A stretch of 64,000 nucleotides of DNA from Thermodesulfobacteriota bacterium. Lineage in GTDB: Bacteria > Desulfobacterota > Desulfobacteria > Desulfobacterales > C00003060. The translations under genes and the position numbers were made by a program. This document shows, in pieces, positions 1,727 to 33,290 of the stretch. The stretch covers positions 185,893 to 249,892 of the forward strand of contig JAXHVD010000002.1 in assembly GCA_034189385.1 (NCBI GenBank), read 5' to 3'. A model generated the notes under the pieces. The model did no database searches and had not been told where the DNA came from. It saw only the letters and a list, made by a program, of their open reading frames with translations. How positions within the stretch are numbered: position 1 is the first letter of the stretch; every line of letters starts with the position of its first letter.

Positions 1727-4066
1727 ATGGCAACACTAAGAATAGCACCTGTTAATAGAATCGAAGGACATATGGATGTCTCGGCCACGACCGATGTGAA
1801 CAAGGTCGTCACTCACGTAGACAACGAGGTAGTCATGTTCCGCGGCCTTGAAAATGTCATGGTCAAGCGGGACCCGCGGGACGCACCCATTATCACGCCA
1901 CGTACCTGAGGCGTCTGACCGATTACACATGGCTCGGCGAGCCATAAAGCGGTTGGAGAGGCCTATGGGTTCAAGGTGGACTACTCTCACTCAAACACTG
2001 GTGGCTATCCAGGCGGACCTGCCGATTTTTGGGCAAACAACGCCAGCGGAACGCCCACCATCAACAAACTGTATGAGGATGTTCCGGCCAATGGCGTATT
2101 GCTCAGAAACCTGGCCATGGCGTCCAACTACCTCATGTCCCACATTCTGCATTTCTACCATCTGGTAGCCTTGGATTATGTGGATGTAAACGGCACGGGG
2201 CTGATCCCGAAAGGGTTCCTCTGCCCGAACTATGACAGTAACTACTACGCCAGGGGGATCGACCCTGTCTTGCAGACAGGCGGTCTCGGAGCGCCGGCGT
2301 ACACGGTCAACAATGCCCCTGTGGCGAACCCAAACGTTCCCGCAGGCGTTGCCGGCGATCTCACCCCCTACCTTGCAGGACAGTATGTGCGCGCCTTAAA
2401 GGCGCGCCGGATGGCCCATCAGCTCGGCGCCATCTTTGCGGGCAAGATGCCCCATGCCTCCTGTTTCACACCGGGGTGCGTAACGACTAAGTCGTACGAT
2501 CCCACGCCGGGCGGCTCTGACGCTGCCGTGGTGAACAAGGTTCACGAGCTACTCTACGGTGGGCCCGGATTTGACGCGACCGCCCCGGGTGCACTCACCA
2601 TGTCCAACCCCCATCCGGAAAGCCTCATGGGCTTTATCGGAAAGCCCAGCGATTTCTGGAATTGGGCTGCGGACGCCAGTGGATCCACAGGCGGTTTGGG
2701 CTTTGGCTTTGCGCCCGAGTTTCTCCCGCCATGGGCAGCCGCTGGTGCGGCAACCGCAGGACCACTGGCCGGCCTCCTTGGGTCAGGGCCGTGGACACAC
2801 GGCGGCACCTTCATGTTTGATACGGTGGCCGCTGCCCACTGCTTCCCCGAGTACTTCTGGATCGGTTCCGGCTACGGCCGTTACCTGGCCTGGGGGATCT
2901 TTGAGGGGGCAGCCCCAGGGCACCCGGACGAAAGGCTCCTGACCAGGGGTCGGGTCCACACGCCGCTGGCGCCCAATCCTCCGGGGACACCCTACGCATA
3001 TGACTACAAGCATCATGGTGCGGACCACTTGAAGGCCAAGGAGTTTACCACAAACTCCTGGTACTATGATCCCGCGGGGATCGACTACGGGCGGCACATG
3101 TGGAAGGGCAAGACCAAGCCGAGGTCCCGTGCGACCAAGCCCAGTGCCTACACCTTTGCCAAGACCCCGCGCTACAAAAACAATGCGAGCACGGCTGCCT
3201 GGGAGATTGCCGATCATCCCAACGCCGCCTATCTTCCCTACGAGGTGGGACCGCTTGCCAGGATGATATCCAATGCCTCTCTGCTGACCACACCGGGCGG
3301 CCCAGCCACAGCAGGCGAAGTGGTTGCCGTGGACAGCGGGGCCTTTGGGTGTTACTACCCGGGTATCCTCGCAGATGTGGATGCCGTTCTGGCTCCCGCA
3401 GGTGTCGGAGGACCATCGCCCATTGGCGTGTTCCCGGGCAGGGGAGTCAACATGACAGCGCACATCACCTTTCTGGCCGGTGCGGGCGTTTTCTACCTGC
3501 CGCCAAACGCCTTCTCACCACAGGTATTGGGGAACGGTTTCCACAGCGACTACATGGGCGGTGCCACGCTGGACAGGATCGCGGCCAGGACCCTGGAGAC
3601 GTACTACGTGGGGGCGCAGATGCTCAACTGGTTTAACGCCCTTAACCCAGCCGCCCAGTCCAACAAGACCCTGTTCTTTGACTATAGCGGCTTCACGAAC
3701 AAGACAGCGCCCAAGAAGGCGAAAGGCGCAGGCCTGACTGAGGCCCCAAGGGGCGCTCTCGGGCACTGGATCAAGATCGGCAAGCCTGACGGGACTTGGA
3801 AGGGCAAGACGGAAAGGTACCAGATCATCACGCCCACGGCCTGGAACATCAGCCCCAAGGATGCCGTTAATGCGACAGAGAAGACCCTGGGTCTGATGGG
3901 TCCCATTGAAAGGTGCATCTGGGGTACCCCTGTGGTGGCCGAATCAGAGCCGATCGAGGTGTTGAGGATTATCCATTCCTTTGACCCGTGCTGTGCCTGT
4001 ACGGTCCATCTGATGAACCCGAAAAAGGAGAAGGTGGCCGAGGTCACACTCGAAGCCCTCATGTAG
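1727..4066 (+). CDS. [NiFe]-hydrogenase large subunit read through two in-frame TGA codons (putative Sec61 and Sec64 in the L1 motif), 779 aa
   Basis: AAGGAGGT RBS. N-terminus PVNRIEGH...FRGLE...RDPRDA. ORFs 1727..1909 and 1976..4066 are in the same frame (249 nt offset), and the bridge reads RT-TGA(1907)-GV-TGA(1916)-PITHGSAS, matching RxCGxCPxxH. Also SHILHFYHL, EAPRGALGHW, TPTAWN, and L2 DPCCACTVH followed by an 18-aa extension. Confidence 0.93.
1917..1954 (+). promoter_or_regulatory. Putative bacterial SECIS element of the hydrogenase large subunit
   Basis: Upper stem ATGGCTC(1929-1935)/GAGCCAT(1939-1945) with a G-starting loop, beginning 10 nt after the second TGA. Lower stem GACCG(1917-1921)/CGGTT(1950-1954). 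Confidence 0.7.
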
Positions 4067-4555: not shown

Positions 4556-5026
4556 GTGGAGAGTGATAAGCCTATACTGGTTTTGGGCGTGGGCAACCTG
4601 CTGCTGAAAGACGAAGGGGTGGGCGTCCACGTGGCCCGAAAACTCATGGAGATGGACCTGCCGTCCCATGTGGAGGTCCTGGATGGCGGCACAGGCGGCT
4701 TTGATCTGCTGGATGAGCTCGAAGGGCGCAAAAAGGTGATCGTTGTGGATACGGCGCAGGCGGGAAAGCCTGCCGGGACCATGTATCGCATGACCACAGA
4801 GGACATTGAAAAGACGGAAAAGGCCCGCATCTCTCTCCATGAGATTGACATGACCGATCTGTTGAAGCTGGCCGACCTGTTCAAGATTGAAAAGCCAGAG
4901 ATCGTGATCATCGGCATTGAACCCAAGGACATGGAGAGCGCCAGCACGGAGCTTTCTCCGGAGATCGAGGCCCTCATTCCCAAGGTGATCGACGTTGTGC
5001 TCAAGGAAATAGGGGTAGATGAGTAG
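4556..5026 (+). CDS. Hydrogenase maturation endopeptidase (HybD/HyaD family)
   Basis: ILVLGVGNLLLKDEGVGVHV, VEVLDGGT, VIVVD, SLHE and IIGIEP motifs; adjacent to a large subunit with a cleavable C-terminal tail. Confidence 0.95.
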   Translation: MESDKPILVLGVGNLLLKDEGVGVHVARKLMEMDLPSHVEVLDGGTGGFDLLDELEGRKKVIVVDTAQAGKPAGTMYRMTTEDIEKTEKARISLHEIDMTDLLKLADLFKIEKPEIVIIGIEPKDMESASTELSPEIEALIPKVIDVVLKEIGVDE

Positions 5027-5542: not shown

Positions 5543-5609
5543 AAGTAGTTTTCCCGCCCAGAAACCGGGTATTTTCTGGGCCAGGATAGGTGATTTCCGC
5601 AATTGCGTC
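5543..5609 (+). promoter_or_regulatory. Conserved tripartite upstream motif, copy A
   Basis: Aligns with copies at 6693, 14996 and 39831. GT cores at 5545, 5569 and 5590 (spacing 24, 21); AATTG starts 11 nt after the third core. Confidence 0.65.
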
Positions 5610-6917: not shown

Positions 6918-9848
6918 ATGCCCATATCCAGCAACTGGAAGAAGCATCTTTCGGTTCTTTTGCTCACGTTGACCGTGTTCGTCTTTGTGGGTGGTCGTAC
7001 TCTCCTACTGGCCGACGAGAACGATGCCCCCCACCAGACCCATCTGACCCTTGCCAGGGGCCCTGGCCTTGGAACAATTTGTACGCCTTGCCACACTGCC
7101 TCTCCTGGCATCTATGAGAATATCCGTTCCCCTTTGGCAGCTGCTTGCGTCACCTGCCACAGCCCTGGCGGACCATTTGATGGAGTGAATGACAGCGCTG
7201 TGGGCGCAGTGAACAATTGGGACAACTTGGGCGATCCAGGCGATGCTGCCGATTCCCTGATCTATGCATCATTTTATCCAGTAGATGTCAAACTGAAATC
7301 AGGAAAAGAAAAATGGTGTGCCACCTGTCACGATCAATCGGCCATGGGGGCGAACGTGATGGAGGAGTTCGAGGGATACGCAGACGACGCCGGCCTCCAG
7401 AGTAAATGGAAAGGCAAACAAGCTGCTCGCCCCGTGCAGTTGTGGTCTTACGTGCCGGACGAGCTGGGTGATTATGAGCTCGGCATCAGCGGCCAGTTTA
7501 TGCGCGTAAAACTCAAGTGGGACGGATCGGCCACCTATGGCTTGGTGAAAAGAAACTTTGCCGGCTCGCCTGAGGACCCTTATTTAGATCTAGGCGGTAA
7601 GGACTACTTCGGGTTTTACATGAAGGTGGAGAACAAGGGCAAGATCAAGAAGCTTAAGGTGAAGCTGAAGCTGATGGGGCAACTTACCTGGTGTACGGCC
7701 AAGTTTAAGGTGGACGCGGCAAGCGGCTTTGTGAATGACGTGTGGCATCTGGTCTTACTGCCCAGGGCGAGTTTTGACAACGACGCCTGTTTTGATGGGC
7801 TGGTAGACAAGATGAAGCTCGTTATCCTGGAGGGAAACCCTGGTGCGCCACCTGCGGTCACCTCTGTGTACTTTGATGCCTTTGGCTGTGACTTCACCGG
7901 AGCAAACGTGATAGGCGATAATGAGACCTACGGTTACTACAAGACAGGACACAAAGTCAACTGCACCCGCTGTCACGATCCCAGCAGCAAGCATATCGAT
8001 GGCAACAGGCGCCATGTCTTTGGATATATCAAGAAGAACGCAAATCCCACCAACTTCAGGTTTTATCCTGATCCTGCCAAACAGATGCAGCTTCCTTATA
8101 CGGAATATATTCCAGGGGCAGAGGGCTCCTTTGCCCTGTGCTATGGGTGCCATTTTGAGGAAAAGCTCATGGCGAACGAACCGGCAGAAAACCTGGAGAC
8201 CAATTTTACGGATGTAGGTTTCATCGCCGACGGGGCCCCTGATAATTTGCACTTATACCATGTAGGAGGGGAGCGCTATCCTGAAATCTCTGACCTAGAG
8301 GCCATCGTGTATCACGGCACATGCGTCCTTTGCCATGACCCCCATGGGCTGTTGAACCCAGCCATGGCCCGCAGAGAGATGGGCAATTTCATCTATTTTG
8401 ACCAGAATGGATGCGAAGTTGCCAAAGAGGAGTGGCATAACCCTGATGTAAATATGGGCGGTGCCCAGACAGAGGGATACGCCACCTATGAGCCTTTATG
8501 CTCTGAAGTTTGCCATATCAACGGGGTGCCACCGAATCCCGACTGCCAAGGGACCCATCCCTATATCAACTCTATGGGGATGGATGGGTGGTATACGCGG
8601 GGGTATGAAAGAGTCCCTCACAAACCAGGAACGGAGTTTGATCTTGACTGTTTTTTCTGCCACACGGCTGGACCTTCCCATGCTACCCACATCCAGACCA
8701 ATCCAAAGGGGCCAGCGCCCCTGGCCTGTGAAGACTGCCACCTTATAAACGAAGAAACCGTTTTTCAGATGGACAGGATGGTCCAACTGGATGTCTGCAA
8801 CCCCTGCCATAGCCCTGATGGTGCCTTTGATGGGCTAGATGACACGGAGTTTGGAGCAATAAACAACTGGGATAACGGCGTCTACGACTACGAGTCCGGC
8901 GGGAACAGCTTCAGGCCTGGAAAAGAGCAGTGGTGTGTGAGCTGCCATGACGATGGCACCTCCCTTTGCGACGGTGTGAGCGCTCCTGATGTGGGCATCT
9001 TCTACACCGGTGGTCACGGGAGACCCGGTGCCAGCGTGGAATGTCTGAGCTGCCATGATGCGACACGCACCCACATCGATGGAGAGGCCAGGACATACGC
9101 CTTTGACTCCCCATCCTATGATCCCGGTCTATCTGGTGTCACATACGCCTCGGGCTATCGGCTGCTGTATGTGGGTGGGAACGTCCCGCTCATGATCCCG
9201 GCTGACGTGACGATTACTTTTGACTGCACGAGTCAAGCCATCAAAGATAACGCCTTTAAGCTGTGCTTCAACTGTCATGATTCGTACAAGTTGTTCGATA
9301 ACACCCCTGGAGACGGCCTGGATACCAACTTCAAGCCGAGTCTGCCCGATCCTCCAATGGGTTACTCCTATGCCTATGGCAGTGAGTGGGACAACAATCA
9401 CCGCGCCCACCTGTTGAGCTTTGCCGGGCCATACTGGGATTCAGATTGGGACACTGGCACCATTGGCGGAACGGGCGCTGACGGACGCGAGTCTATGATC
9501 ACGTGCTCCTCCTGTCACAATGTCCACGGCGCTGCTGCTGCCCAGGCAGGCTGGACCAATGAGGCCATGATCAGGGACGGAAGCCTCGCAGGAAGGACCG
9601 GATATGGCTTCAGCTACGTGGTTGAGGATGTGGCGAGCGGCGGCTACCCTATGGTGACCTCCACCGGTGCCACTCAGGCAAACAGCGTTGGTGCTGTGTT
9701 CAGAAACAATACGGACAACATGTGCGGAGGGTCCTATTGTCACGATAGTCCCACTTCACCGCCTGGCAGCAGTTATGATGCCACGGGCATTGGCTGGGGG
9801 ACCTATCTAGAATACTACCGGCCCTGGCAGGACTATTTGGGAAATTAA
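6918..9848 (+). CDS. Large secreted multiheme cytochrome c (13 CxxCH plus one CX3CH and one CX4CH) with an inserted heme-free beta domain
   Basis: Signal peptide. Motifs CTPCH, CVTCH, CATCH, CTRCH, CYGCH, CVLCH, CSEVCH, CFFCH, CEDCH, CNPCH, CVSCH, CLSCH, CFNCH, CSSCH, CGGSYCH. Confidence 0.92.
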   Translation: MPISSNWKKHLSVLLLTLTVFVFVGGRTLLLADENDAPHQTHLTLARGPGLGTICTPCHTASPGIYENIRSPLAAACVTCHSPGGPFDGVNDSAVGAVNNWDNLGDPGDAADSLIYASFYPVDVKLKSGKEKWCATCHDQSAMGANVMEEFEGYADDAGLQSKWKGKQAARPVQLWSYVPDELGDYELGISGQFMRVKLKWDGSATYGLVKRNFAGSPEDPYLDLGGKDYFGFYMKVENKGKIKKLKVKLKLMGQLTWCTAKFKVDAASGFVNDVWHLVLLPRASFDNDACFDGLVDKMKLVILEGNPGAPPAVTSVYFDAFGCDFTGANVIGDNETYGYYKTGHKVNCTRCHDPSSKHIDGNRRHVFGYIKKNANPTNFRFYPDPAKQMQLPYTEYIPGAEGSFALCYGCHFEEKLMANEPAENLETNFTDVGFIADGAPDNLHLYHVGGERYPEISDLEAIVYHGTCVLCHDPHGLLNPAMARREMGNFIYFDQNGCEVAKEEWHNPDVNMGGAQTEGYATYEPLCSEVCHINGVPPNPDCQGTHPYINSMGMDGWYTRGYERVPHKPGTEFDLDCFFCHTAGPSHATHIQTNPKGPAPLACEDCHLINEETVFQMDRMVQLDVCNPCHSPDGAFDGLDDTEFGAINNWDNGVYDYESGGNSFRPGKEQWCVSCHDDGTSLCDGVSAPDVGIFYTGGHGRPGASVECLSCHDATRTHIDGEARTYAFDSPSYDPGLSGVTYASGYRLLYVGGNVPLMIPADVTITFDCTSQAIKDNAFKLCFNCHDSYKLFDNTPGDGLDTNFKPSLPDPPMGYSYAYGSEWDNNHRAHLLSFAGPYWDSDWDTGTIGGTGADGRESMITCSSCHNVHGAAAAQAGWTNEAMIRDGSLAGRTGYGFSYVVEDVASGGYPMVTSTGATQANSVGAVFRNNTDNMCGGSYCHDSPTSPPGSSYDATGIGWGTYLEYYRPWQDYLGN

Positions 9849-9898
9849 CGCGACAAGGAGTATTTAGGCATAGTCGCTTAATGGCAGAGATACATAAT

Positions 9899-10042
9899 TC
9901 ACCGCAAAGGCGCAAAGAGCACAGAGTCTATTTTGCTTTATGTTTTCCGCTGAGACGGCGGAAAACATAAGAAGCCATCGCCTATGGCGAATGTCTTGGC
10001 GTTCTTTGCGTCTCAAGCGAGTGCATGCGAGCGGGCGGTGAG
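9899..10042. repeat. Dispersed palindromic intergenic element (second copy at ~32822-32927)
   Basis: TTTTCCGCTGAGACGGCGGAAAA hairpin (inverted in the second copy) plus a shared GCGTTCTTTGCGTCT..AGCGA...GAGCGGGCGGTG segment. Confidence 0.55.
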
Positions 10043-10064: not shown

Positions 10065-12362
10065 ATGTCTAAAAAGAGAAGGGAAAAGCATACGATAACG
10101 CATAGAAAAATGTTGCTCTCGGCAGCAACGGTGCTTTTTGTCTTGGCCGCAGCAGGGGCCTTGTGGGCCTTGTGCCCCCATCCTTATAACCGGCCCACGC
10201 CGACGATGGACTACGTGTCCCAAGAGATCGGCATGTTTGATGGCATATACTCGGAGTACACGGAGCAGGACTGCAGGGGCTGCCACGAGGATAGTGAGGA
10301 TGCAGTGAAAAACCGGCACCACGAGACGCCCAGGGGGGACATTTGTGTGGACTGCCACGCCGAAGACCAGTCTGGCGATAAGATAATAATAAGCAACTGC
10401 CTGGGTGGCGAGTCCTGGCAATGCCACGCCACCTATGACAACGGCTGGCACCACGCCACGGATTGGGCATTTAACGAGAATTGTGTCAAATGCCACAACC
10501 CGAACCTGATTGATGAGATCACGGAATTTTATGACTTCGCAACCTTGCCGCCGTCGCTCGTGGCGCCCACGCCCTTTTCCTGCGAGAACTGCCACTGGGA
10601 GCAGGCCATCATGGATCAGCCCGGCGACGCCTGCAATCCAGGCCACCCTTCCACTTATGAGCATGTAGACAGTTTCGGGAACCTTGTGGGGTACCATGAA
10701 TATTCCCGGTCTATCTATGACAGCCGCCTGAACCACCACATGGGAGGGGAGGGCTTTGCCCTCGGTCAGTGCTACCAGTGCCACTCCCTAGAGCCGACTG
10801 ATCCAAGTTGGGACCCCTACAATCCAGAGCTTATCCGTTACTGCGAGAGGTGCCACTCCATAGAGAGGCTCCATGGGATAGAAGCCCACGTGTCAACACA
10901 GGCCGGTTGGGCACCCGTTGGGTTCCATTGGGACCCTGTAGGCAGCGTGCCGGACCCGGGTAACATTGATTGCACCGACCTTGCGCCCACGTATTACCGC
11001 ACGGGCGATGACGGTACTGGCAATGTGGAGCGACTGGACCCTTATGGTGATCCTTTTGATCCTTCCCGTTACTGGGGGCAAGTGCCTTGCAGCCCTCCCA
11101 GGACGGAGGGCTTCTACACGGCCGACGAGCACTGCCTGGCATGCCACGCAGCCGGGCTGCCGCCCTGGGTCCCGGACCCTCCTCCAGCCGTTCCATGGCT
11201 TGACACGGGCCTTGACGGCATCCATCCCAGCCACGGAAGCCCTGTGATGCTTGTCGCCCTAAGGGGAGGCAACTTTGGCGATGAGCACATCTTGGGAAGG
11301 GACGTGCAAGTGGGGATAGATCCGGGAACGGGCTGGGTCTGGATTGACGCACCCATTTATTCCTGGAGTGACACCCTGATTGAGTGGCGGCTGACTGCCG
11401 GTCTGCTGGATCCCGGAAACTACAAGGTGCGGGTGGTGACCGAGGTGGGCAAGAGCAATAGGCGCAATTTTGTAGTAAAAGATCACCCCAAGCTGCTGAG
11501 TGCCAATCCGCAAAATGGACCATGCGACACCTGGATCACCCTTTCCGGGGAATTCGGCAACCAGCAGCAGAAAATGTTTGCTGACGGCTATCACGGTGTC
11601 CATCACGTGGTGGAATTTGAGGGCCCGATTACGACCTATACGGCGCTCAGCTATGCGAACTGGAGCGATACCAGCATTGACGTGATGATTGGAAAGGGCT
11701 TCTTAGACGAAGTAGATACCTGTGGGGAGCCCGTGGACGGGCGCAATTTTGTCCGCGATGATGGCACGGCGGTTCCTTCCGGTTCCTGCACGGGCCATAT
11801 CTGTCCGGAAGAGCCCAAGGTCATAAGCTGCAACGGGATGGCCCTTGGCACCTATGAGATCTGTGTAAAGGCCATCTACTATGGAGATGACGATGGGAGC
11901 GGCACCTTGACTTGCGGCGATATCGTCTTTCACGTGGACAAGAGCGATCCTTTAGACTTTGAGCTCACCAACACCCCCTATATTAACAAGGTCAAGCCCA
12001 AGGAAAGCGAGCGGTGGTTTGAGGAGGATTGCACTTCGGCGTATCCAGGATGCTACGTCATGCACAAGAACAAGATCAAGATCATCGGTGGAAACTTTGG
12101 TCCAACGCAAGGACCTGGTGATGAGGTGCGCTTTGGAAGCCTGGTACACTACACGAAGTACTGCGGCGGCAACACGGAGAAAGGAGAGCTCCTGCCAGTC
12201 TCTTTGTGGAGCAACACCAAAATCAAGGTCAAGTTGAAGGTTGCGGCCGAGTGGGAAGGCAAGAGCAAGTATATCTGGGTCTCTAAAGGCGGTCAGTGCA
12301 GCAATCCAGTGCCGATGGGGATCTTAGAGCCCACCAGCCTGTGCGATCAGTCGTGTCCCTAA
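10065..12362 (+). CDS. omcZ: OmcZ-like octaheme cytochrome c precursor with C-terminal IPT/TIG-like domains (paralog 1)
   Basis: 7 CxxCH plus CLGGESWQCH. Motif order matches G. sulfurreducens OmcZ as I recall it (QxxGxxD..CxxCH..RHH; HHxT..CxxCH; PxP..CExCH; HH; IRxCExCH..LH). C-terminal GGNFG...WS(D/N)T beta-sandwich repeats. Start chosen at ATG 10065. Confidence 0.8.
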   Translation: MSKKRREKHTITHRKMLLSAATVLFVLAAAGALWALCPHPYNRPTPTMDYVSQEIGMFDGIYSEYTEQDCRGCHEDSEDAVKNRHHETPRGDICVDCHAEDQSGDKIIISNCLGGESWQCHATYDNGWHHATDWAFNENCVKCHNPNLIDEITEFYDFATLPPSLVAPTPFSCENCHWEQAIMDQPGDACNPGHPSTYEHVDSFGNLVGYHEYSRSIYDSRLNHHMGGEGFALGQCYQCHSLEPTDPSWDPYNPELIRYCERCHSIERLHGIEAHVSTQAGWAPVGFHWDPVGSVPDPGNIDCTDLAPTYYRTGDDGTGNVERLDPYGDPFDPSRYWGQVPCSPPRTEGFYTADEHCLACHAAGLPPWVPDPPPAVPWLDTGLDGIHPSHGSPVMLVALRGGNFGDEHILGRDVQVGIDPGTGWVWIDAPIYSWSDTLIEWRLTAGLLDPGNYKVRVVTEVGKSNRRNFVVKDHPKLLSANPQNGPCDTWITLSGEFGNQQQKMFADGYHGVHHVVEFEGPITTYTALSYANWSDTSIDVMIGKGFLDEVDTCGEPVDGRNFVRDDGTAVPSGSCTGHICPEEPKVISCNGMALGTYEICVKAIYYGDDDGSGTLTCGDIVFHVDKSDPLDFELTNTPYINKVKPKESERWFEEDCTSAYPGCYVMHKNKIKIIGGNFGPTQGPGDEVRFGSLVHYTKYCGGNTEKGELLPVSLWSNTKIKVKLKVAAEWEGKSKYIWVSKGGQCSNPVPMGILEPTSLCDQSCP

Positions 12363-12463
12363 TAGCCTTTCCTTTTCCCTCACTATTACAACGGTTCAGT
12401 GGCTGCCGTGAAATGATGAAGTGATGGAATGGCGGAATGATGGGTTCAGAGGAAGAAAAAGAA

Positions 12464-14095
12464 ATGATGTGCAATGGTCTCTCCCGCTTTTACCCCATTA
12501 TTCCATTATTCCATTATTCCACCACCCCAACGATTCCCACTAAAGCAAAGCCTCCAATCTCATTTTACCTTGTTTGGCTCCTTGCGTTCATGCTGTCTCT
12601 TACGGGCTGCCGTCACCAATCCGGGGGGACGAAGGAGGCTGTTGCGCAGACAGATCCAAAGGTCGTGGCCATGATCGGAGATGAGGCAATCATGAGGCAG
12701 GACCTTGAGAACGCCATGAAGCGGTTACCGCCGCGCAGAGGGGAAGGATATCGTGGCAGGGTCCTTGATCGTTTAATAAGAGTAAGGGTTTTTTCTGAGG
12801 CAGCAAAAAGGGCGGGACTGGACAAGGATCCAGAGACCCAGGGGGATCTGGAGCGGGCTCAACATGAGATCTTAGCCCGATCTTTTATTGCCAGGCATGT
12901 GGACCAGCAGGCAGTGCCGTCAGAAAAAGAGTTGAACCAGTTCTACCTGGCACAGAAGAAGCAGTTCATGATCCCCGAAGGGGTATTGATGCAGCATATC
13001 GTCGTCAAGAAAAAAGAAGAGGCCGAAGCCATATTGGGGAAGTTGAAGGAGGGGGCCTCTTTTGAGGAGCTGGCTAGGAAAAGATCGATTGCCCCTTCAT
13101 GGAAAAGTGGAGGGCTCTGTGGGTGGCTCTTTAAGGGGAGGATGGAGCCGGAACTGGAGAAGGTGGCCTTTGAACTGGACAAAGCGGCACTGAGTGACGT
13201 CATAGAGACGAACAAGGGTTTCCAGATTATCAAGGTGTTAGAGAGACGGGACAAGAGAGAGCTGGGTTTTGAAGAGGCAAAGGCAAAGATATCCCATACA
13301 TTATTGGCGAAAAAGAAGAGGCAGCTTATTCATCAGTACTACAAAGAGGCAAAGGTAAAGAGAAATCCTACTGAGGCGGGCGTGCTGGCCAAAGTGGGAG
13401 ACGATGCCTTGACGGGAGAGAGCCTTGCGCCCATTTTGGCCAAGGTGTCGGAAAAGGAGAGAGGAGCGATCCGGCGCCGATGGATCGACTACTTCATAGA
13501 AAAAGAGGTCTTCTCAAAGGAAGCGAGAAAGGTGGGGCTCGAAAACGATCCAGAGGTGGCCTATGAACTTGAGAGAAGAAGGGAAGAGGTCCTGGCCGAT
13601 GCCTTTGCTAAACAGTTTATCACTCAGAAATACCCAATCAGTGATAGGGACATAGCGGGGTATTATCAAGCCCACCTGGAAGAGTTCCAGAGACCGTTGA
13701 GGATGAGGGTGAGATCCATACGGGTGGAGACGAGAAAAGAGGCAGAAGAGATCTTAGAAGCGCTACATGAGGGGGCTTCCTTTGAACGTCTGGCCATGAA
13801 AGAGTCCATTCACCCTGCAGCCCCCCTGGCGGGAAATATTGGCTGGTTCGGTAAAGGAGAAAAGGACGCTGCACTGGAAAGGGCCGCCTCTTCACTGGAA
13901 AAGGGGCAGATCAGCGACATCGTAAAGACAGGGGCTGGCTACGAGATACTAAAACTGACGAACAAAAAGGGCGGTGAGGTCAGGCCCCTTGAAGAGGTGG
14001 AGAAAGGGATAAGGATAAAATTGACGCAGCAAAGATTCGAGCGGGAAAGGCAGCATTATTATCAGGAGGCAAGGGTGAGAATCTTGGACTCATAG
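12464..14095 (+). CDS. PpiC/parvulin-type peptidyl-prolyl isomerase with two PPIase domains, probable lipoprotein
   Basis: HIVVK..EAEAIL..GASFEELARKRS...GG..GW, repeated. Lipobox-like LSLTGC. Start codon uncertain (12437 or 12464). Confidence 0.88.
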   Translation: MMCNGLSRFYPIIPLFHYSTTPTIPTKAKPPISFYLVWLLAFMLSLTGCRHQSGGTKEAVAQTDPKVVAMIGDEAIMRQDLENAMKRLPPRRGEGYRGRVLDRLIRVRVFSEAAKRAGLDKDPETQGDLERAQHEILARSFIARHVDQQAVPSEKELNQFYLAQKKQFMIPEGVLMQHIVVKKKEEAEAILGKLKEGASFEELARKRSIAPSWKSGGLCGWLFKGRMEPELEKVAFELDKAALSDVIETNKGFQIIKVLERRDKRELGFEEAKAKISHTLLAKKKRQLIHQYYKEAKVKRNPTEAGVLAKVGDDALTGESLAPILAKVSEKERGAIRRRWIDYFIEKEVFSKEARKVGLENDPEVAYELERRREEVLADAFAKQFITQKYPISDRDIAGYYQAHLEEFQRPLRMRVRSIRVETRKEAEEILEALHEGASFERLAMKESIHPAAPLAGNIGWFGKGEKDAALERAASSLEKGQISDIVKTGAGYEILKLTNKKGGEVRPLEEVEKGIRIKLTQQRFERERQHYYQEARVRILDS

Positions 14096-14627
14096 GCAGC
14101 CTGTTTTCTCTTCGCCGTTTCTTTTATAAAGAGCTGGCTTAAAACTATGGGGGTATGAACCGAACAAGCGAGCGCATTGTCCACAGGAGAGCTACCGCAG
14201 CCCTCGTAGGTTCAATATCCTCGGCTGCGGGACAATGGGTTGTCAGGTCACTTAAACTAGAACCCTAATGCAACCAAAATGCGTGCCCTATCATTTGTAA
14301 GCTGGCGATCAGCACGGCTTTTCAAGTGACACATGGAATTGTGACAGTTCTACAATGATAGAGATATAAATAGGTTTGCCGAAGTGCTTCAAAAACATTT
14401 TTCTTCGCTTGGTTTGCCACTTTTTACAGGCTCTAAGTTCGCTCCGCTAGCACTGCAAAACTCACCGCCTTCGGCGGTTCAAACAGTTCCAGTGCTAACG
14501 CTCCACTTCACTAAGAGCCTCTACAAAAGGTGTCAAAAATCGCTCAGAAAAAGTTCTGAAGCTTTTCCGGCGATGGTTATGGCTCAATTGGGGTAGAAAA
14601 ACCACCATTTCATACAGGAGGTTGCCC

Positions 14628-14963
14628 ATGTTTGGACTGGGTGTGCCGGAACTTATCATTATTGCCCTGATCATCCTGATTCTCTTCGGGGCTAAGCGTC
14701 TTCCGGGCATTGGAACGGGACTTGGCAAGACGGTAAAAGAGGTGCGTCACATCCAGGAGGAATTGGGGGAGGACAAGGGGAAGGGAAAAAAGGCTGGGGA
14801 AAGTGACGACCCCCCGTCAGAGGAGAGCAAGGGTCTTGAGGGCAGGCTGGCCCACTCTCTTCAACAGAAGCTCACTGGTAAGGTGATTGAACGGGTCCCT
14901 GGCATAAGGCAGGCCAAGCAACTAAAAGACAAGGCTGATAAGATCAAGAGGATTGTCAGTTGA
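14628..14963 (+). CDS. tatA: Twin-arginine translocase subunit TatA (with C-terminal extension)
   Basis: MFGLGVPELIIIALIILILFGAKRLPGIGTGLGK; AGGAGG RBS. Confidence 0.9.
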   Translation: MFGLGVPELIIIALIILILFGAKRLPGIGTGLGKTVKEVRHIQEELGEDKGKGKKAGESDDPPSEESKGLEGRLAHSLQQKLTGKVIERVPGIRQAKQLKDKADKIKRIVS

Positions 14964-14995
14964 GGTGTTGCAGTGAGCCCCTCCGCCCTTACGTT

Positions 14996-15058
14996 CGGTG
15001 ATTGCCCTGTGTAAAAATCAGGTCTTTTCACACGGAAAATGAGTGGTTCTCCCAATTG
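14996..15058 (+). promoter_or_regulatory. Conserved tripartite upstream motif, copy C (upstream of the two-component system)
   Basis: GGTGATTGCCC..GTAAAAATCAGGTCTTTTC..AAATGAGTGGTTCTCCCAATTG; cores at 14998, 15022 and 15043, AATTG at 15054. Confidence 0.65.
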
Positions 15059-15195
15059 TATTCTTAGTGACGTCGGTGTAATTCCTACATAATGGCCAAA
15101 GTAGCAGGATGCTGGTGATTTCATGTCAAAAAAGAGGGTCTGATTCCAGGTATTCGGGGTGCATGCAGTTTTGAGGAAGACGCGGAATGTGAGGC

Positions 15196-16029
15196 ATGAC
15201 ACCCCCTGGAAAGGATGCATGTAGGATGGCCCAGGTTATGGACAGCAAATCGAATCTGTTTCGTCATGAGCTTTCCTGGAATCCCATGGAGGAGGCTCGC
15301 CATGATCTTAGGTATCACCTTAAGATCATAAGCGATGTGACGGAAGCCAGAATGCTACGGAGGAGAATAAGAGCCTCTGAAGAAGCCTATAGAAAACAAA
15401 TTTCTCGGGAGCTCCATGATGGGATCGGTCAGGCGCTCAACACCATGGGCTTGTATGTTTCGTTAGCCAAAGAGACGTTGGGACAAAACCAGCAGGCCGT
15501 CATGGAGCACTTGTCCAAGCTGGAATCGCTCTTGGAGCGAACGGTAGACGAAGCCCATAGGCTGGCCATGAACATGCGGCCTTCTGTGCTGGATGACATG
15601 GGCCTCGTTCCGGCCCTGCGCTTTCTCTGCAAAGATGTTGGAACCAGGACCGGTATGGACATTCATATGAGAGCAAACCTGGCGCAAAGGCTTCGTGACA
15701 GAGAGGTAGAAACAGCCCTTTATCGAATGACTCAGGAAGGCCTGTGTAATATCGAAAAACACGCAAGTGCGACCCGGAGCGTCATCAAACTGGATCAAAG
15801 GGACTCGAGGTTGATTTTACGCATTCAAGACAATGGGTCAGGTTTTGATGTGCAAGAAGCCTGGAACCGAGGCATGGGCTTGATGGGCATGCAAGAGAGG
15901 GCTTCTCTGCTGGGAGGTCAGGTGACCATCAAGTCCCAAAGAGGTCAAGGTACCGAGATAAGAATCGAAGTCTTCCATAGAAATGTGAATGGAACAGAGG
16001 TGGGGCCGTGTCCGCGCTTACTATTCTGA
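15196..16029 (+). CDS. Soluble HisKA_3 (NarX/DegS-type) histidine kinase with a minimal N-terminal region
   Basis: H-box RELHDGIGQAL, LRP-like MRPSVLDDMGL, N-box QEGLCNIEKHA, DNGSGF, GMGLMGMQERA. Confidence 0.88.
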   Translation: MTPPGKDACRMAQVMDSKSNLFRHELSWNPMEEARHDLRYHLKIISDVTEARMLRRRIRASEEAYRKQISRELHDGIGQALNTMGLYVSLAKETLGQNQQAVMEHLSKLESLLERTVDEAHRLAMNMRPSVLDDMGLVPALRFLCKDVGTRTGMDIHMRANLAQRLRDREVETALYRMTQEGLCNIEKHASATRSVIKLDQRDSRLILRIQDNGSGFDVQEAWNRGMGLMGMQERASLLGGQVTIKSQRGQGTEIRIEVFHRNVNGTEVGPCPRLLF

Positions 16030-16685
16030 TCGCTGATGACCACACGCTCTTTCGCCAAGGGGTGATGAGTCTTTTGGAAAAACACGCCCATATCAAGGTC
16101 ATCGGCGAAGCGGCTACTGGTCAGCATGCCTTGGAGCAGATGAGGAAACTAAAGCCGGACCTGGTTATTCTGGATATTTCCATGCCCGGCCTGTCAGGTC
16201 TGGACATTATTGCCCGTATTAGAAAGATCAACCCCCGCACAAAGGTCTTGATTCTATCCATGTATGAGAACGAGGAATACCTTTATCGGGCGTTGAAGGC
16301 AGGTGCTTGTGGTTATGTCCTGAAAAAAATGGCAGCCAGGGATCTGCTTTCGTCCATTGCAGCTGCTCAAGCTGGCGAGGTGTACCTGAGCCCCTCCATG
16401 TCAACCCACGTGGTCAAGAGGTATCTCCTGCATGACAGCCCGGAGGGAAAGGATCTGACAGACCATTTGTTGACGGCTCGAGAACGTGAAATTTTAAGAC
16501 TGCTCTGCCTGGGCAAGGATAACAAACAGATCGCGGGGCTCCTTGATATCAGCTACCGCACGGCACAAACGCATCGGGCGAAGATTATGAAAAAGCTGAA
16601 TGTACGCACCTTGCCCCACCTTATCGGCTTTGCCATTCGCTCAGGGATCACGACGACGGAGGAGCTGATGTGCTGTCCGGAATGA
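16008..16685 (+). CDS. NarL/FixJ-family response regulator (REC + LuxR HTH)
   Basis: ILIADDH, ILDISMP, GYVLK, LTAREREIL...THRAKIMKKL. Confidence 0.95.
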   Translation: MSALTILIADDHTLFRQGVMSLLEKHAHIKVIGEAATGQHALEQMRKLKPDLVILDISMPGLSGLDIIARIRKINPRTKVLILSMYENEEYLYRALKAGACGYVLKKMAARDLLSSIAAAQAGEVYLSPSMSTHVVKRYLLHDSPEGKDLTDHLLTAREREILRLLCLGKDNKQIAGLLDISYRTAQTHRAKIMKKLNVRTLPHLIGFAIRSGITTTEELMCCPE

Positions 16686-17102
16686 AGGGGGCTGAATCCA
16701 GGTTGAGACCGTTACTTGAGATCTGGTTATACGACGAAATAGGTATTTCAAGGCAAAAGTGTGCTTATAGCAGGCAAAATCGTTTTGTACGAAGCGGTGC
16801 ATTCGGAGTCATTTCAGCGGAGTAAATCACGGAGACAGAGGAGTAACTGATTATGATTCAAAGGAAAACAGCCGCAAGGGTGGGGATTACTTCATGGGGC
16901 TGCGGCGCCTTGCTGTCGGGTGCTTGTTGCGCTATAGGCAAAAAGGTATGAGTGAAGACATGTGTTGCGAGTCTTTTGCGAGAAGAACAATCTTAAAAAA
17001 AGCCTGAGGAAAGGGGGTGCGACTCTAGGGTTGGGGGAGGAATTTTGACTATTCTAATAGGGTGAAAACTGTGAGGGTTTTTGAAGAAGGGAGGAAGACA
17101 TC

Positions 17103-19427
17103 ATGAGTAAGAGGACATGTGTATTACTTTTGGGGGCGGTGCTGCTGGTTCTTGCTGCGGCTGGAACCGTGGGGGCCCTGAATGCTGCCTACAATCGCCC
17201 GAATCCCACCATGGACTACGTGCCCCAAGACAGGGGGATCTACGATACCATGTACTGGGAATACAGCGGTGATTGCGGTTGCCGGAGCTGCCACGGAAAT
17301 AGCACGGCAGACAGACACCACTATACGCCCATTGTTTTAAGGGACAAGTTGTGTACGGTATGCCATCCCACATGTACCCCAGGTACTCCAGATTGTGAGA
17401 ACGGGGTCTTGATCATCAGGGATTGCACGACCTCCGGTTGCCACAGTTGGGCTGATGCAGGACCAAAGGATGAAAAAGGAACCTTTGATCCTGCCAACGA
17501 CAAAAACGGTTGGCATCACAACACGGATATGGCTGCCGCCGAGAACTGCACCGGCTGCCACAACCCAAACCTGGTTGAAGAGATCAGTGACTTTAGAGAC
17601 CACCAGATGTATCCGCCAACGGTAGTGACTCCTTCGCCCTTTTCTTGTGAGAACTGCCATTGGGAGCAAGCCCTGGTGGCCGGCACGGGTGATTGCGATA
17701 ATCCGGGACATCCATCGACCTATGACCACGTAGATAAGTGGGGAAACACTATAGGCTTCTATGAGTACAACAAGCCCATCTTCGGAAACTTTGATACCCA
17801 CCACATGGGATTCAAGGGCGAGGTGGCCCAAGACTGCTCCAAGTGCCACTCTCAAGATCCTGACAACCCAAGTTGGGATCCCTATAACCCGGAGCTTGGA
17901 CGCTATTGTCAGATATGCCACAGCATGCGCACCCTGCATACCATAGATCCTCATGTGGACGTCCATCCTGGGTGGTTTCCTGTCGGGTTCCATGCAAACG
18001 ACAACGATCTTGACGGCTTGATCGATGAAGATGATATCGACAGCCTAGACAATGATGGTGACGGCTATGTGGACGAAGATCCACCGGGTACGCTCGGCCC
18101 CGACCCATTTGTCTATGCCACTTGGGATGCCTCAAGCCCTCCCGGGGTTTGTGATCCTGAGCAATACCCGGGCTACACCGCTGATATGCAGTGCTGGGGA
18201 TGCCACGCCGACAATGTGCCTCCTTATGACGGAGACATTGGCTGTCAGCCTTGGATTGATACTGGTGCAGATGGCTTAATCCCCATTGCCGGTAGCTGTG
18301 GTCTGCAGGTGACCATCAGAGGCGGTTGCTTCGGCGATGAACAGATCGTGGGCCGGTCAGTGCAATTAAAAGTCGCGCCCCTCACTTGGATAGAGATGCC
18401 AGTGCACGCCTGGACAGACAACGTGATCGAGTGGGAGGTGCCGTGCTGGACCTTAGCCGCTGGAAACTACAAGGTACGCGTGGCCACGGAAGAAGGAAAC
18501 AGCAATGCTTTAAACTTTACCGTAAAGGACCATCCCACGTTGACCGGTATCAGTCCCGCTGCAGGAGGCTGCGGCACGTCGATCACGCTGACTGGAAGCG
18601 GCGGGTTTGCGCCCTCTAGAAAGACAGCGCCTTCGGTGGCAGATCCCACGAATTCATACTATGGCATCTACCACACGGTAGACTTTGTCTCCTCGCAAGG
18701 CACCTATACGGTCAACAATGACATGTTTACCGCATGGAGCGACACGAGCGTCACGCTCACGCTCCAAAAGGTCTTCGTGGACGAGGTAGATACCTGCGGC
18801 GACCCCACGGACAAGCGAAACTTCGTCCGCGATACTGGCGCCACGGTTCCTGCCGGTGCTTGTAACGGCCATGTCTGTCCTGAAGAGCCTAAGGTGGACA
18901 ACTGCGAGTGTCTGGGCCTTGGTGTCTATCAAGTGTACATGAAGGCCATCTACTACGGTGACGAAGACGGCAGCGACACCTTGACCTGCGGCGATATCAT
19001 CTTCCAGGTCGAAAAGAGTGATCCCGTGCAGTTTGAGCTTGTCCAGGCCCCATTTATTAACAAGGTCAAACCCAACCCGTCTGAGCGGTTTTTCTACGAG
19101 GACTGCGGCGGCGGTTGCATTATGCTGCACAAGAACATTGTCAAGATCATCGGCTACAACTTTGGCCCAACGCAACAAGCCGGTGACGAGGTGCGCCTTG
19201 GGAGCATGACCCAGTACGACGATAATTGTACCGGTGTCAATCCCGACGCTGGCAAACCCCTGCCGGTCAAGATGTGGAGTGCGACCAAGATCAAGGTCAA
19301 GCTGAAGGGCAAACCGGAATGGGACGGCAAGACCAAGTATCTCTGGGTCAAGAAAGCCGGTGTATGTAGCGCCCCAATGCCCGTAGGGATCTTGGATCCC
19401 ATCTCTCTGTGCGGCATGTGTCCATAA
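17103..19427 (+). CDS. omcZ: OmcZ-like octaheme cytochrome c precursor with C-terminal IPT/TIG-like domains (paralog 2)
   Basis: Signal peptide. Motifs CRSCH, CTVCH, CTTSGCH, CTGCH, CENCH, CSKCH, CQICH, CWGCH. PIFGNFDTHH resembles OmcZ PIFSNQDTHH (recalled). Colinear with 10065..12362. Confidence 0.82.
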   Translation: MSKRTCVLLLGAVLLVLAAAGTVGALNAAYNRPNPTMDYVPQDRGIYDTMYWEYSGDCGCRSCHGNSTADRHHYTPIVLRDKLCTVCHPTCTPGTPDCENGVLIIRDCTTSGCHSWADAGPKDEKGTFDPANDKNGWHHNTDMAAAENCTGCHNPNLVEEISDFRDHQMYPPTVVTPSPFSCENCHWEQALVAGTGDCDNPGHPSTYDHVDKWGNTIGFYEYNKPIFGNFDTHHMGFKGEVAQDCSKCHSQDPDNPSWDPYNPELGRYCQICHSMRTLHTIDPHVDVHPGWFPVGFHANDNDLDGLIDEDDIDSLDNDGDGYVDEDPPGTLGPDPFVYATWDASSPPGVCDPEQYPGYTADMQCWGCHADNVPPYDGDIGCQPWIDTGADGLIPIAGSCGLQVTIRGGCFGDEQIVGRSVQLKVAPLTWIEMPVHAWTDNVIEWEVPCWTLAAGNYKVRVATEEGNSNALNFTVKDHPTLTGISPAAGGCGTSITLTGSGGFAPSRKTAPSVADPTNSYYGIYHTVDFVSSQGTYTVNNDMFTAWSDTSVTLTLQKVFVDEVDTCGDPTDKRNFVRDTGATVPAGACNGHVCPEEPKVDNCECLGLGVYQVYMKAIYYGDEDGSDTLTCGDIIFQVEKSDPVQFELVQAPFINKVKPNPSERFFYEDCGGGCIMLHKNIVKIIGYNFGPTQQAGDEVRLGSMTQYDDNCTGVNPDAGKPLPVKMWSATKIKVKLKGKPEWDGKTKYLWVKKAGVCSAPMPVGILDPISLCGMCP

Positions 19428-19438
19428 TGACCCCTAAC

Positions 19439-19517
19439 CTGGAAGGAGGGGTTGATCCCTCCTTCCAGCCAGATTGAACTAAAAAGGGGGAAGGGAGCTT
19501 TCCTTCCCCCTCCTTTC
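19439..19517 (+). terminator. Tandem hairpins, probable terminator or mRNA-stabilising structure after omcZ-like paralog 2
   Basis: CTGGAAGGAGGG-gttgat-CCCTCCTTCCAG and AGGGGGAAGGGA-gctt-TCCTTCCCCCT followed by CCTTTC. Confidence 0.65.
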
Positions 19518-19570
19518 GAGCATTTTATTCGAATTTCTGATTTCCCGCTTACCTTCATGCGGGATGGGTT

Positions 19571-21247
19571 ATGAACATGAGATGGATGAAACGTTTTGAA
19601 GCCAATATCTGGCAGCGGTTGCGCCTGATGGCTTCAAAGCACACCTCGCCCCCTGTATTTCCGTGTCTTCATAATATTCCAACGATTTCTACTGGCACGA
19701 AGCCCCTGATTTTATGTTCCCTCATTCTGTGCATGGCTCTGTTTTTTGTTGTGGGTTGCCGTGAGGAGGCAGCCGATAGGTCGGCCCTTTTGGGAAAGAG
19801 CAAGTCAACGGTCGTGGCCTTGATCGGTGAGGAGGAGATCACAAGAGAGGATCTTGAACAGGATCTGAAGCAGATACCGGAGCAGAAACATCAGGCTCTG
19901 CAGAAGAAGATCCTGGACGATTTGATCGAGGCCAGGGTCTTTGCCAGGGAGGCAAGAAAGGCGGGTCTTCATGAAGACCCTGAGATTATGGAATCGTTGA
20001 AAAAGACGACAAAGGAAACGTTGGCAAGAAATTTTGTCAGGAGACATGTGGACAAAGAGGCTGAGCCCTCAGAAGAGGAACAACGGAAGTATTACGACGA
20101 ACACATGGACCAGTTCCTGGTCCCCGATGGTGTCATGCTTCGGCAGATCGTGCTGAAGGAAAAGGAGCAAGCCGAGGCGGTCCTAAAAGAGCTGAAGGAG
20201 GGGGCCCCCTTCGAGGAGCTGGCCAGAAAAAGATCGATTGGCCGCGCATGGAAGACGGGGGGGCGCCTTGGCTGGCGCTTTAAAGGGAGGATGGACCCGG
20301 CACTCGAAGAGGTGGCGTTTGGCCTGGAAAAGAGCGAGCTCAGTGACATTATTAAGACAGGGGAAGGGTATGAGATCATCGAGGTGTTGAACAAAAGCGA
20401 TCAAGGTCAGAGGCCCTTTGAAGAGGCAAAGCCTCACATACGCACCGGCCTGTTTAGGGACAAAAAGAACGCCCTTGTCCATGAGTTATACAAAGAGGCC
20501 GGGGTGGACATCGATCCCGCTGAAGATGGCGTGCTGGCCAAGGTAGGAGACGATGCCTTAACGGAAGAGACCCTTGCCCCTATCCTAGCCAAGGCTTCAG
20601 AAGAGCAACAAAAAGAGGTCAGGCGGCGATGGGTTCAGTATTTCATAGACACAACCGTCTTCTCAAAGGAGGCAAGAAAGATCCGCCTTGAAGACGATCC
20701 CGAGGTGGCCCGGGAGATCCGAAGAAAAACAGACCGGATACTGGCCACGGCCTTTCGGAAGAGGTTTATCGGGGAAAAAACGCAGATCAGCGACAAGGAG
20801 ATAGCCGACTATTACCAGTCCCACCCTGGGCAATTTACGACTCCTCCTCTGGTAAGGGTAGAAGCCATCTTGGTCGAGACCAGGCAGGAGGCTGAAGAGA
20901 TCGTGAAAGAACTAAAGGCCGGTGCCGGTTTTGCGGCCTTGGCTGCCAGGGAGTCGCTCTACCCTAATGCGGCTTCAAGGGCCGGAGAGATTGGCTGGTT
21001 TGGCAAGGGAGAAAGGGACCCTGCTCTGGAAAAGGTAGCCTTCGCCATGGAGCCTGGGAAGATCAGCGACATCATCAAGACAGAGGCAGGCTTCGAGATC
21101 ATCAAATTGATGGCAAAGAGAGGCGGGGAAACTAGGCCCTTTGATGAAGTAAAGCAGGACATAGAGATGAAGTTGATGGCGCAAAAACTAGCAGAAGAAA
21201 AGGAGCGTTATTACAAGGAGGCTGGGGTCAAAATCTTAGGCTTATAA
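19571..21247 (+). CDS. PpiC/parvulin-type peptidyl-prolyl isomerase with two PPIase domains (paralog 2), probable lipoprotein
   Basis: Colinear with 12464..14095; FFVVGC lipobox-like motif; FEELARKRS, GEIGWFGKGE. Confidence 0.88.
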   Translation: MNMRWMKRFEANIWQRLRLMASKHTSPPVFPCLHNIPTISTGTKPLILCSLILCMALFFVVGCREEAADRSALLGKSKSTVVALIGEEEITREDLEQDLKQIPEQKHQALQKKILDDLIEARVFAREARKAGLHEDPEIMESLKKTTKETLARNFVRRHVDKEAEPSEEEQRKYYDEHMDQFLVPDGVMLRQIVLKEKEQAEAVLKELKEGAPFEELARKRSIGRAWKTGGRLGWRFKGRMDPALEEVAFGLEKSELSDIIKTGEGYEIIEVLNKSDQGQRPFEEAKPHIRTGLFRDKKNALVHELYKEAGVDIDPAEDGVLAKVGDDALTEETLAPILAKASEEQQKEVRRRWVQYFIDTTVFSKEARKIRLEDDPEVAREIRRKTDRILATAFRKRFIGEKTQISDKEIADYYQSHPGQFTTPPLVRVEAILVETRQEAEEIVKELKAGAGFAALAARESLYPNAASRAGEIGWFGKGERDPALEKVAFAMEPGKISDIIKTEAGFEIIKLMAKRGGETRPFDEVKQDIEMKLMAQKLAEEKERYYKEAGVKILGL

Positions 21248-33250: not shown

Positions 33251-33290
33251 TTACATCAAGACAAACCTGCAAAACAAGAGGGGTGGAAAG

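Follow-up and report, generated by a model that had tools for sequence, protein, structure and literature searches.

Does a cytochrome that resembles OmcZ necessarily build a nanowire? The question is raised by a stretch of 64,000 nucleotides from a Thermodesulfobacteriota bacterium (GenBank assembly GCA_034189385.1, contig JAXHVD010000002.1, forward-strand positions 185,893 to 249,892; hereafter the window), in which two genes, cyt1 and cyt2, encode octaheme cytochromes of this kind. An initial annotation had proposed that the two belong to tandem modules, each with a PpiC-type foldase gene directly behind it, in a lineage other than Geobacter and without an adjacent OzpA subtilase, and that their products form nanowires, possibly as heteropolymers, which are either processed by a different protease or left uncleaved. 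We find instead a clade of OmcZ-fold cytochromes linked to hydrogenases, formate dehydrogenases (FDHs) and molybdoenzymes exported by the twin-arginine (Tat) route, a link that is new, and the reading that we favour, at about even chances, is that of a tail-retaining, non-polymerised OmcZ-fold electron carrier for periplasmic H2 and formate enzymes.

Both cytochrome genes and the two-parvulin PpiC gene behind each are present as proposed (Table 1), with 49% identity between cyt1 and cyt2 and 51% between PpiC1 and PpiC2. The modules are not back to back, however, since tatA and a two-component pair lie in between, and the relative L067 keeps the order PpiC-kinase-regulator-cytochrome-PpiC. The idea of a heteropolymer was not supported, as a quick tree does not place cyt1 and cyt2 as sisters and the loci of most relatives hold only one copy. 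A recent tandem duplication or an obligatory heteropolymer was rejected on the 49% identity and the same tree.

Single-sequence phmmer searches of the cytochromes against the PDB did not find OmcZ, and no NCBIfam model matched either the cytochromes or a canonical OmcZ homolog. A search with the heme region returned 222 homologs, and a profile built from 93 sequences recovered OmcZ of G. sulfurreducens (GSU2076) in both of its structures, with E 5.5e-19 for 8D9M, in one match across the hemes and a second across heme 8 and the tail, and E 9.1e-11 for 7LQ5; the profile match of the heme domain alone had E 5.9e-10. In a fold search of 48,161 chains, 7LQ5 and 8D9M were the sole chains with Z >= 2 (Z 7.6, 7.4; rmsd 6.0-6.1 over 180-186 aligned residues), and Foldseek ranked the two OmcZ structures first and second (E 2.6e-3) for the cyt2 heme-domain model. 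The domain had to be folded separately for this purpose, since Foldseek with the full-length model gave Ig-type matches only; the ESM Atlas yielded one lead below 0.9 and no structure match over threshold. The homology to OmcZ therefore holds, at a distance that single-sequence searches miss.

Each cytochrome has seven CxxCH motifs and one non-canonical motif at heme III (CX7CH in cyt1, CX4CH in cyt2), whose two Cys and His are invariant in 79 of 79 homologs and at which a heme is presumably attached as well. Because all 16 heme Cys and seven of the eight proximal His are invariant among these 79 homologs, the eighth His being present in 78, the octaheme pattern is not due to chance. The OmcZ family features listed in the available part of PMC13748539 are three HH pairs and four sequence regions. 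The HH pairs are all present (H72/73, H138/139 and H233/234 in cyt2, each in 76-79 of 79), and the distal His of each of the eight hemes (that of heme V tentatively) and the Arg in front of heme VII are retained. Region 2 (L/IHNIE/Q) occurs as the variant LHTI/LHGI and region 4 (DCxGCH) as D-x-x-CxxCH, with H279 in 78/79; region 3 (GxGHI/LG), which supplies the heme V ligand of OmcZ just ahead of the heme VIII motif, aligns only roughly with a GW...GFH segment, about 70 residues ahead of heme VIII in cyt1 and cyt2, that has its His in 72/79. Region 1 (DGHYV/IP) is not retained, with D...YP only and GH absent. Three further His are conserved (H203, H209 and H284 in 75, 74 and 79 of 79, respectively), of which the invariant H284 is an alternative candidate for the heme V ligand. 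The heme domains are strongly acidic, with 16-17 Lys and Arg versus 53-56 Asp and Glu. Between the GFH motif and heme 8, at residues ~298-330, cyt2 also has an Asp-rich, D-x-D-x-D-G-like insert of low pLDDT (predicted local distance difference test score), which we take from its motif to be a possible calcium-binding site.

In the quick tree (101 rows), an SH-aLRT (Shimodaira-Hasegawa-like approximate likelihood ratio test) value of 100 separates the 94 rows of the clade and its relatives from the other seven, six of which are canonical OmcZ homologs; this was the only form of support computed, and long branches meet at the root. Because region 1 is not retained, the clade is best filed, by its sequences, as a divergent sister clade of OmcZ and not as OmcZ proper. 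It has in common with OmcZ the eight-heme motif order, the HH pairs, the LH ligand, the Arg before heme VII, a signal peptide, an Ig-like tail and a neighbouring PpiC-type gene, at an identity of ~25-27%. It differs in that the odd heme motif is at heme III (CX4CH in 71/79) and not at heme II (CX14CH), that the tail has three Cys-rich Ig domains and not two, that region 1 is not retained and three further His are conserved, and that Tat redox enzymes, and no S8 protease or published cut motif, accompany it. According to the available part of PMC13748539, OmcZ2 of 'Ca. Methanoperedens vercellensis' likewise has a longer heme domain (330 residues), three Ig-like domains and tandem paralogs in one cluster; unlike the clade it is archaeal, has eight canonical motifs and flanking serine proteases, is cut after GWAG and has been shown to form filaments. 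Only 3 of 111 sequences of our set exceeded 100 bits against the six canonical OmcZ homologs, and since one published survey used 100 bits as its OmcZ cut-off, the clade is easily missed. Two ten-heme OmcZ-like proteins (L214 12339-13391, L219 7131-8261) have two extra hemes in place of the Ig tail.

The neighbourhood survey covered 107 loci, the window and the locus L003. Heme domains with at least six motifs were kept (111) and merged at 90% identity to 85, and two short proteins of other architecture were removed, leaving 83 clade members, of which 22 had at least 5 kb on both sides of the gene ('well-flanked'); neighbours were counted within a radius of 8 kb. Six omcZ loci from a draw of 401 genomes of the phylum served as canonical controls. 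The loci come mostly from one genus, whose genomes are kin and partly incomplete, and hence are not independent. Within the order the clade was found in that genus, with one weak match elsewhere among the 401 genomes; it occurs in 12/37 genomes of the genus, and genomes hold several dispersed paralogs. The proposal of a lineage other than Geobacter agrees with the labels of the 20 named records in which homologs occur: Desulfobacterales or Desulfobacteria in 12, only 'bacterium' in five, Nitrospirota in two and Anaerolineales in one (a weak match). The genome that holds the window (G000, with the window on its contig C12; 90% complete) encodes dsrA, DsrJ, QrcAB and c3-type cytochromes, and its host would be a sulfate reducer of the Desulfobacterales/Desulfobacteria kind. 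At four loci (L105, L110, L116, L119) tandem pairs of clade genes stand without PpiC, S8 or hydrogenase, and in 3/4 of them a 563-residue protein of no Pfam family sits between the pair.

Redox enzymes exported by the Tat route recur beside the clade. A hydrogenase lies within 8 kb of 21 of the 83 members, an FDH of six and a Phs/Psr-like molybdoenzyme of two; 27 members have any of the three, 23 of them within 500 bp, as do 11 of the 22 well-flanked members. This 50% compares with ~1.5% of the host genome that lies no more than 8 kb from periplasmic hydrogenase or FDH genes, a figure reached by arithmetic from three loci. The linked enzymes are of three kinds that are not homologous, and the gene order varies, also among records from beyond the genus: many genus loci read cytochrome-hydS-hydL-hyaD-PpiC, L039, with an all-Cys hydrogenase, reads hydS-hydL-cytochrome-hyaD, L037 and L038 fdhA-fdhB-cytochrome-PpiC, and L045 molybdoenzyme-torD-cytochrome-PpiC. 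The position in such operons is the slot of a cytochrome subunit. None of the small subunits checked has a C-terminal membrane helix, and no hydrophobic segment was found in the HydS of the window, which hence lacks a C-terminal membrane anchor. Sulfate reducers are known for dedicated cytochrome c3 subunits of their periplasmic hydrogenases and formate dehydrogenases. Like the clade, these are multiheme c-type cytochromes whose genes share an operon with a soluble, anchor-less enzyme exported by the Tat route; the clade differs from them in its OmcZ fold, theirs being c3, and in its tail of 400 residues. When cyt2 (residues 28-480) was modelled in complex with the hydrogenase small subunit, the score was 0.00, a result without weight either way.

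The hydrogenase operon of the window, which the initial annotation had overlooked together with the link to such enzymes, lies 6 kb upstream of cyt1. The best PDB matches of HydL are all Group 1 enzymes, and the periplasmic traits of that group (Tat small subunit, maturation protease) are present. Two in-frame TGA codons, at residues 61 and 64, occupy N-terminal nickel-ligand positions, and gene callers start hydL at 1976. The same two TGA codons are found in 17 of the 18 hydL rows beside clade genes (two pairs of rows are duplicates), and a frameshift or pseudogene was rejected on this recurrence; genome-wide reading of TGA as Trp was rejected as well, because many genes end in TGA. The C-terminal motif has Cys, and the protein is ~250 residues longer than the ordinary large subunit of the same genome (779 versus 521). 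A hairpin beyond the TGA codons, a candidate selenocysteine insertion sequence (SECIS), is more stable than shuffled sequence in the window (z -3.16) and not above shuffles in 3/3 relatives folded singly; RNAalifold with 16 hydL segments gave a weak consensus, with double changes in 2/15 pairs and stems that differ between sub-lineages. The genome has selA and tRNA-Sec. According to the available part of PMC13582414, such genomes may use a tRNA that places Cys at UGA; selenocysteine at both sites (UxxU) is therefore likely and not certain. The same part of that source finds UXXU only in Group 4 [NiFeSe] hydrogenases and cites Groups 1 and 3 for CXXU exceptions only, whereas the enzyme here is of Group 1; the Group 1 [NiFeSe] HysAB has one selenocysteine, in the C-terminal motif, where HydL has Cys, its TGA codons being in the N-terminal motif. 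The TGA-x-x-TGA hydrogenase occurs in 8/37 genomes of the genus, six with a whole clade gene within ~6 kb on the same contig and two in which the contig breaks off at a tail of the clade type; since other proteins also have such tail domains, these two tails could belong to another protein. No clade gene lies by a close Cys-type hydrogenase paralog (L212) or by the ordinary hydrogenase of the host genome (L222).

The processing machinery of canonical OmcZ is missing from most of these loci. In G. sulfurreducens, OmcZ is accompanied by OzpA (GSU2075) and a prolyl isomerase. All six control loci combine omcZ with an S8 protease and a single-domain PpiC, whereas an S8 gene lies within 8 kb of only 3/83 clade members (1/22 well-flanked). 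As had been noted for the neighbourhood of cyt1 and cyt2, no S8 gene occurs in the window, and the genome search extended this: the two S8 genes of the host genome sit on other contigs and score 69 and 43 bits on a hidden Markov model of the six control proteases, against 152-164 bits for the three clade-adjacent S8s, and no OzpA ortholog was found in this 90%-complete genome. The three S8-linked members (L052, L058, L136) form one nested branch of the tree and stand head to head with the protease gene, whose products, of 670-690 residues, are nearer to OzpA (30-34%) than the host's S8s are and have their C-terminal Ig-like domain in common with the cytochrome tail; an Arg-containing stretch found in the linkers of all three members is a candidate cut site. 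Among genomes of the genus, the best matches to a control OzpA occur where the cytochrome is absent, and Pfam applied to 49 neighbours of enzyme-unlinked members showed no S8, no other evident processing protease and no common theme. Published OmcZ cut sites follow WFGN and GWAG; an aromatic residue followed by two small ones was found in the first 10 linker positions of 0/81 members. The Pro-rich linker that the initial annotation placed behind heme 8 is also acidic, with Asp or Glu in the first four positions in 60/81 and the first Pro within 8 residues in 67/81, versus 9-11 residues in 6/6 controls. In the available part of a preprint, OmcZ assembly follows treatment with OzpA and requires the prolyl isomerase, and a review (PMC12307469, in the part available) describes the C-terminal part as an obstacle to filaments that cleavage removes. 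With protease and cut motif both missing, the proposed formation of nanowires is less likely than not, and of the two fates proposed for the tail, being left uncleaved fits better than processing by another protease.

The tail itself looks like a domain that is kept. It comprises ~400 residues that AlphaFold2 models, at high pLDDT, as confidently all-beta and that Foldseek matches to tandem Ig, FN3 and IPT proteins, in line with the IPT-like domains of the initial annotation. It contains 13 Cys in cyt1 and 17 in cyt2, versus 0-4 in the controls, and several are conserved (C490 in 86/93, C601 in 82/93, C448 in 71/93). A third paralog in the same genome (L003 9381-11516; G000:C12 ~17.4-19.5 kb) has an in-frame TGA at the junction of the first two Ig domains, as do the relatives L043 and L080, with 190-242 open tail codons after it; the position is Cys in 27/93 full-length members, several database proteins end at this TGA, and the hairpins that follow it have z -1.69 and -2.84. 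The third paralog thus likely carries selenocysteine in its tail, the alternative being that read-through switches between short and long forms of the product. A tail with conserved Cys and a likely selenocysteine is more readily understood as kept than as discarded. The third tail domain also occurs in other secreted proteins of the genome and in the clade-adjacent S8s, and possibly acts as an anchoring or sorting module. Proteins of the host genome that end in it are encoded at C22 34616-36769, C62 77593-78282, C7 90523-92574 and C12 16053-17246, the first just upstream of one of the two S8 genes.

The PpiC proteins differ from those of canonical omcZ loci in having two parvulin domains, often with a lipobox, instead of a single domain. 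They were found within 8 kb of 19/83 members and in 10/37 genus genomes, nine with a heme-domain match and one with a tail fragment, and never without either. They are probably not orthologs of the PpiC of the omcZ operon, a reading that was rejected because a protein on contig C7 of the host genome matches the latter at 248 bits, compared with 161-163 for PpiC1 and PpiC2.

Since the cutting protease and the cut site are missing and the genes lie beside H2 and formate enzymes, the cytochromes are likely uncut carriers rather than classic nanowires. They would be exported by Sec, matured by Ccm and folded with the help of the membrane-tethered two-parvulin lipoprotein encoded behind each; the three Ig-like tail domains would stay on and, as published for uncut OmcZ, block filament assembly. 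A soluble Tat-exported enzyme, here probably the upstream Group 1 hydrogenase, would donate electrons, which would pass from hydrogenase or FDH through the eight hemes to a periplasmic network (c3, Qrc, Dsr) or, alternatively, to an outer-membrane conduit of the GSU2203/GSU2204 type, of which the genome encodes a decaheme and an MtrB/PioB-like porin (G000:C63; L235 3868-6797). Several observations weigh against this carrier. Half of the well-flanked members (11/22) have no such enzyme within 8 kb, and in the window the link is loose: cyt1 lies 6 kb and cyt2 13 kb from hydL, cyt2 was not counted as hydrogenase-linked in the 83-member tally, and a terminator-like hairpin of 14 pairs follows hydL, the exception in promoter and terminator scans of the window that were otherwise near chance. 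The host already has c3-type cytochromes, and these are the usual partners of periplasmic hydrogenases. Neighbours such as a MopE-repeat protein, polysaccharide genes and beta-propellers, together with the Ig-like tails, point to a cell-surface setting. The model of the heme domain, with a pLDDT of 63, has moderate quality, the genome is incomplete and holds two other secreted S8 proteases, and the W-x-G-N-type motif is also missing in 3/6 OzpA-linked controls (L214, L216, L217), so that its absence from the clade is supportive and not decisive.

These observations leave the two nanowire readings, taken together, a substantial share of the probability, somewhat short of even, each of them being unlikely by itself. 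A classic OmcZ-type nanowire would be secreted, its linker cut by an unlinked protease (an S8 of the host genome or a Pro-tolerant peptidase) and its heme domains polymerised, wiring H2 and formate metabolism to minerals or partner cells. The retained distal-His positions and Arg, the outer-membrane conduit and the type IV pilus genes of the host are in keeping with it, as are the three members head to head with an S8 closer to OzpA and the archaeal OmcZ2, which also has three Ig domains and yet is cut and forms filaments (PMC13748539, in its available part). It has to contend with the lack of an OzpA ortholog, with S8 genes near so few members, with best OzpA matches in genomes that lack the cytochrome, with an acidic, Pro-rich linker, a lost region 1 of the OmcZ core and strongly acidic heme domains, and with conserved Cys and a likely selenocysteine in a tail that would be discarded. 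If instead the full-length protein were displayed or polymerised outside the cell, its Ig domains serving to anchor or dock it, hydrogenase or FDH could work on it and exchange electrons with minerals, metal or partner cells. The wide use of the third tail domain, as expected of an anchoring module, the extra length of HydL, the surface-protein and polysaccharide genes that flank the cluster, and the branched and ring assemblies given by engineered OmcZ (bioRxiv 10.64898/2026.07.18.739370) speak for such a wire or scaffold, which we likewise consider improbable given the reported hindrance of filaments by the C-terminal part (PMC12307469, as available), the absence of type II secretion genes GspD and GspE above cut-off in the host genome, and the fact that nothing here places the enzymes outside the periplasm. 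Least probable, at long odds, is that there is no dedicated partnership and that the cytochromes are mobile multiheme cargo of an island of redox and surface genes, serving generally to store or relay electrons, and that their closeness to hydrogenases reflects shared island ancestry; the enzyme-free half of the well-flanked members, the dispersed paralogs and the restriction to one genus of the order would suit this, whereas the variety of linked Tat enzymes (three kinds, not homologous) and of gene orders, also outside the genus, and the contrast between ~1.5% and 50% argue against it.

If the uncut carrier is correct, the OmcZ fold also functions unassembled, with its heme core kept and protease and cut site lost, and the clade would offer a natural stable form of the OmcZ precursor, whose structure is, in the literature as far as available, so far only predicted. 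OmcZ-like genes are taken as markers of nanowires and extracellular electron transfer, and the clade would warn against nanowire calls from homology alone; through the H2 and formate enzymes beside it, the nanowire family that has been studied best is connected with the energy metabolism of sulfate reducers. A bolder version, which we think rather doubtful, is that sulfate reducers of sediments have turned the OmcZ fold to a new use, as an interchangeable cytochrome module that stays uncut, is in some members itself a selenoprotein, and couples a two-selenium hydrogenase, FDH or molybdoenzyme to electron transfer over long distances, at the cell surface or outside it; this would amount to an enzyme-coupled wire for H2 and formate. 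None of the titles and abstracts returned by the literature searches concerned the clade or its enzyme link, and the available parts of PMC9473688, PMC9012536, PMC12246660, PMC10553843 and PMC13188914 do not mention it, although published alignments or supplementary trees may include members.

Table 1. Features of the window from the hydrogenase operon to the second foldase gene (positions are those of the window).
Feature	Position	Strand	Remarks
hydS, [NiFe]-hydrogenase small subunit	476..1711	+	Pfam PF01058, PF14720; Tat (twin-Arg) signal; start placed at 476
hydL, Group 1 [NiFe]-hydrogenase large subunit	1727..4066	+	PDB matches, NCBIfam; 779 aa if two in-frame TGA are read through
hydL TGA-x-x-TGA site	1907..1918	+	present in 17/18 hydL rows adjoining clade genes
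hairpin, G-first loop	1929..1945	+	candidate SECIS for both TGA codons; z -3.16
hydrogenase maturation protease (HyaD/HycI type)	4556..5026	+	Pfam PF01750
acidic protein, N-terminal hydrophobic segment	5689..6636	+	no family; homologs near clade genes at two further loci
exported cytochrome, 13 CxxCH motifs	6918..9848	+	related large cytochromes recur beside clade genes
cyt1, OmcZ-like octaheme 1	10065..12362	+	open reading frame opens at 9984; signal peptide; three Ig/IPT-like domains
PpiC1, two-parvulin PpiC/SurA-type foldase	12437..14095	+	lipobox; two Rotamase domains
tatA	14622..14963	+	Pfam PF02416
HisKA_3 kinase and LuxR-type response regulator	15196..16685	+	such a pair also precedes the cyt2 ortholog in L066, L067
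cyt2, OmcZ-like octaheme 2	17103..19427	+	signal peptide; Asp-rich insert before heme 8; three Ig/IPT-like domains
PpiC2, two-parvulin PpiC/SurA-type foldase	19571..21247	+	lipobox; two Rotamase domains

RNA contigs from two runs cover hydS, hydL, cyt1 and cyt2, without giving strand or level; because they are mostly 85-95% alike, they come from relatives, and we make no claim of expression for the genes of the window. Very high depth in DNA runs over the intergenic stretches 5030-5600, 9850-9990 and 14100-14300 indicates multicopy repeats or mobile elements between the genes. Downstream of PpiC2, the window encodes a 1616-residue protein (25216-30066) that has 21 or more Cys/Asp repeats of the MopE type and is anchored in the membrane at its C-terminus, relatives of which lie near clade genes in L071, L095 and L115, followed at 31174-32544 by an open reading frame with a Tat signal in tandem with a split-Soret-like diheme one, with homologs near clade genes in L047, L111 and L141. 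Five sulfatase/phosphodiesterase-like paralogs at 40089-52832 lie within a polysaccharide gene cluster. The C-terminus of an exported protein at 33243-33920 repeats cyt2 hemes I-III at 74% identity and stops right after heme III, and a 10-heme cytochrome (33884-35782) follows it.

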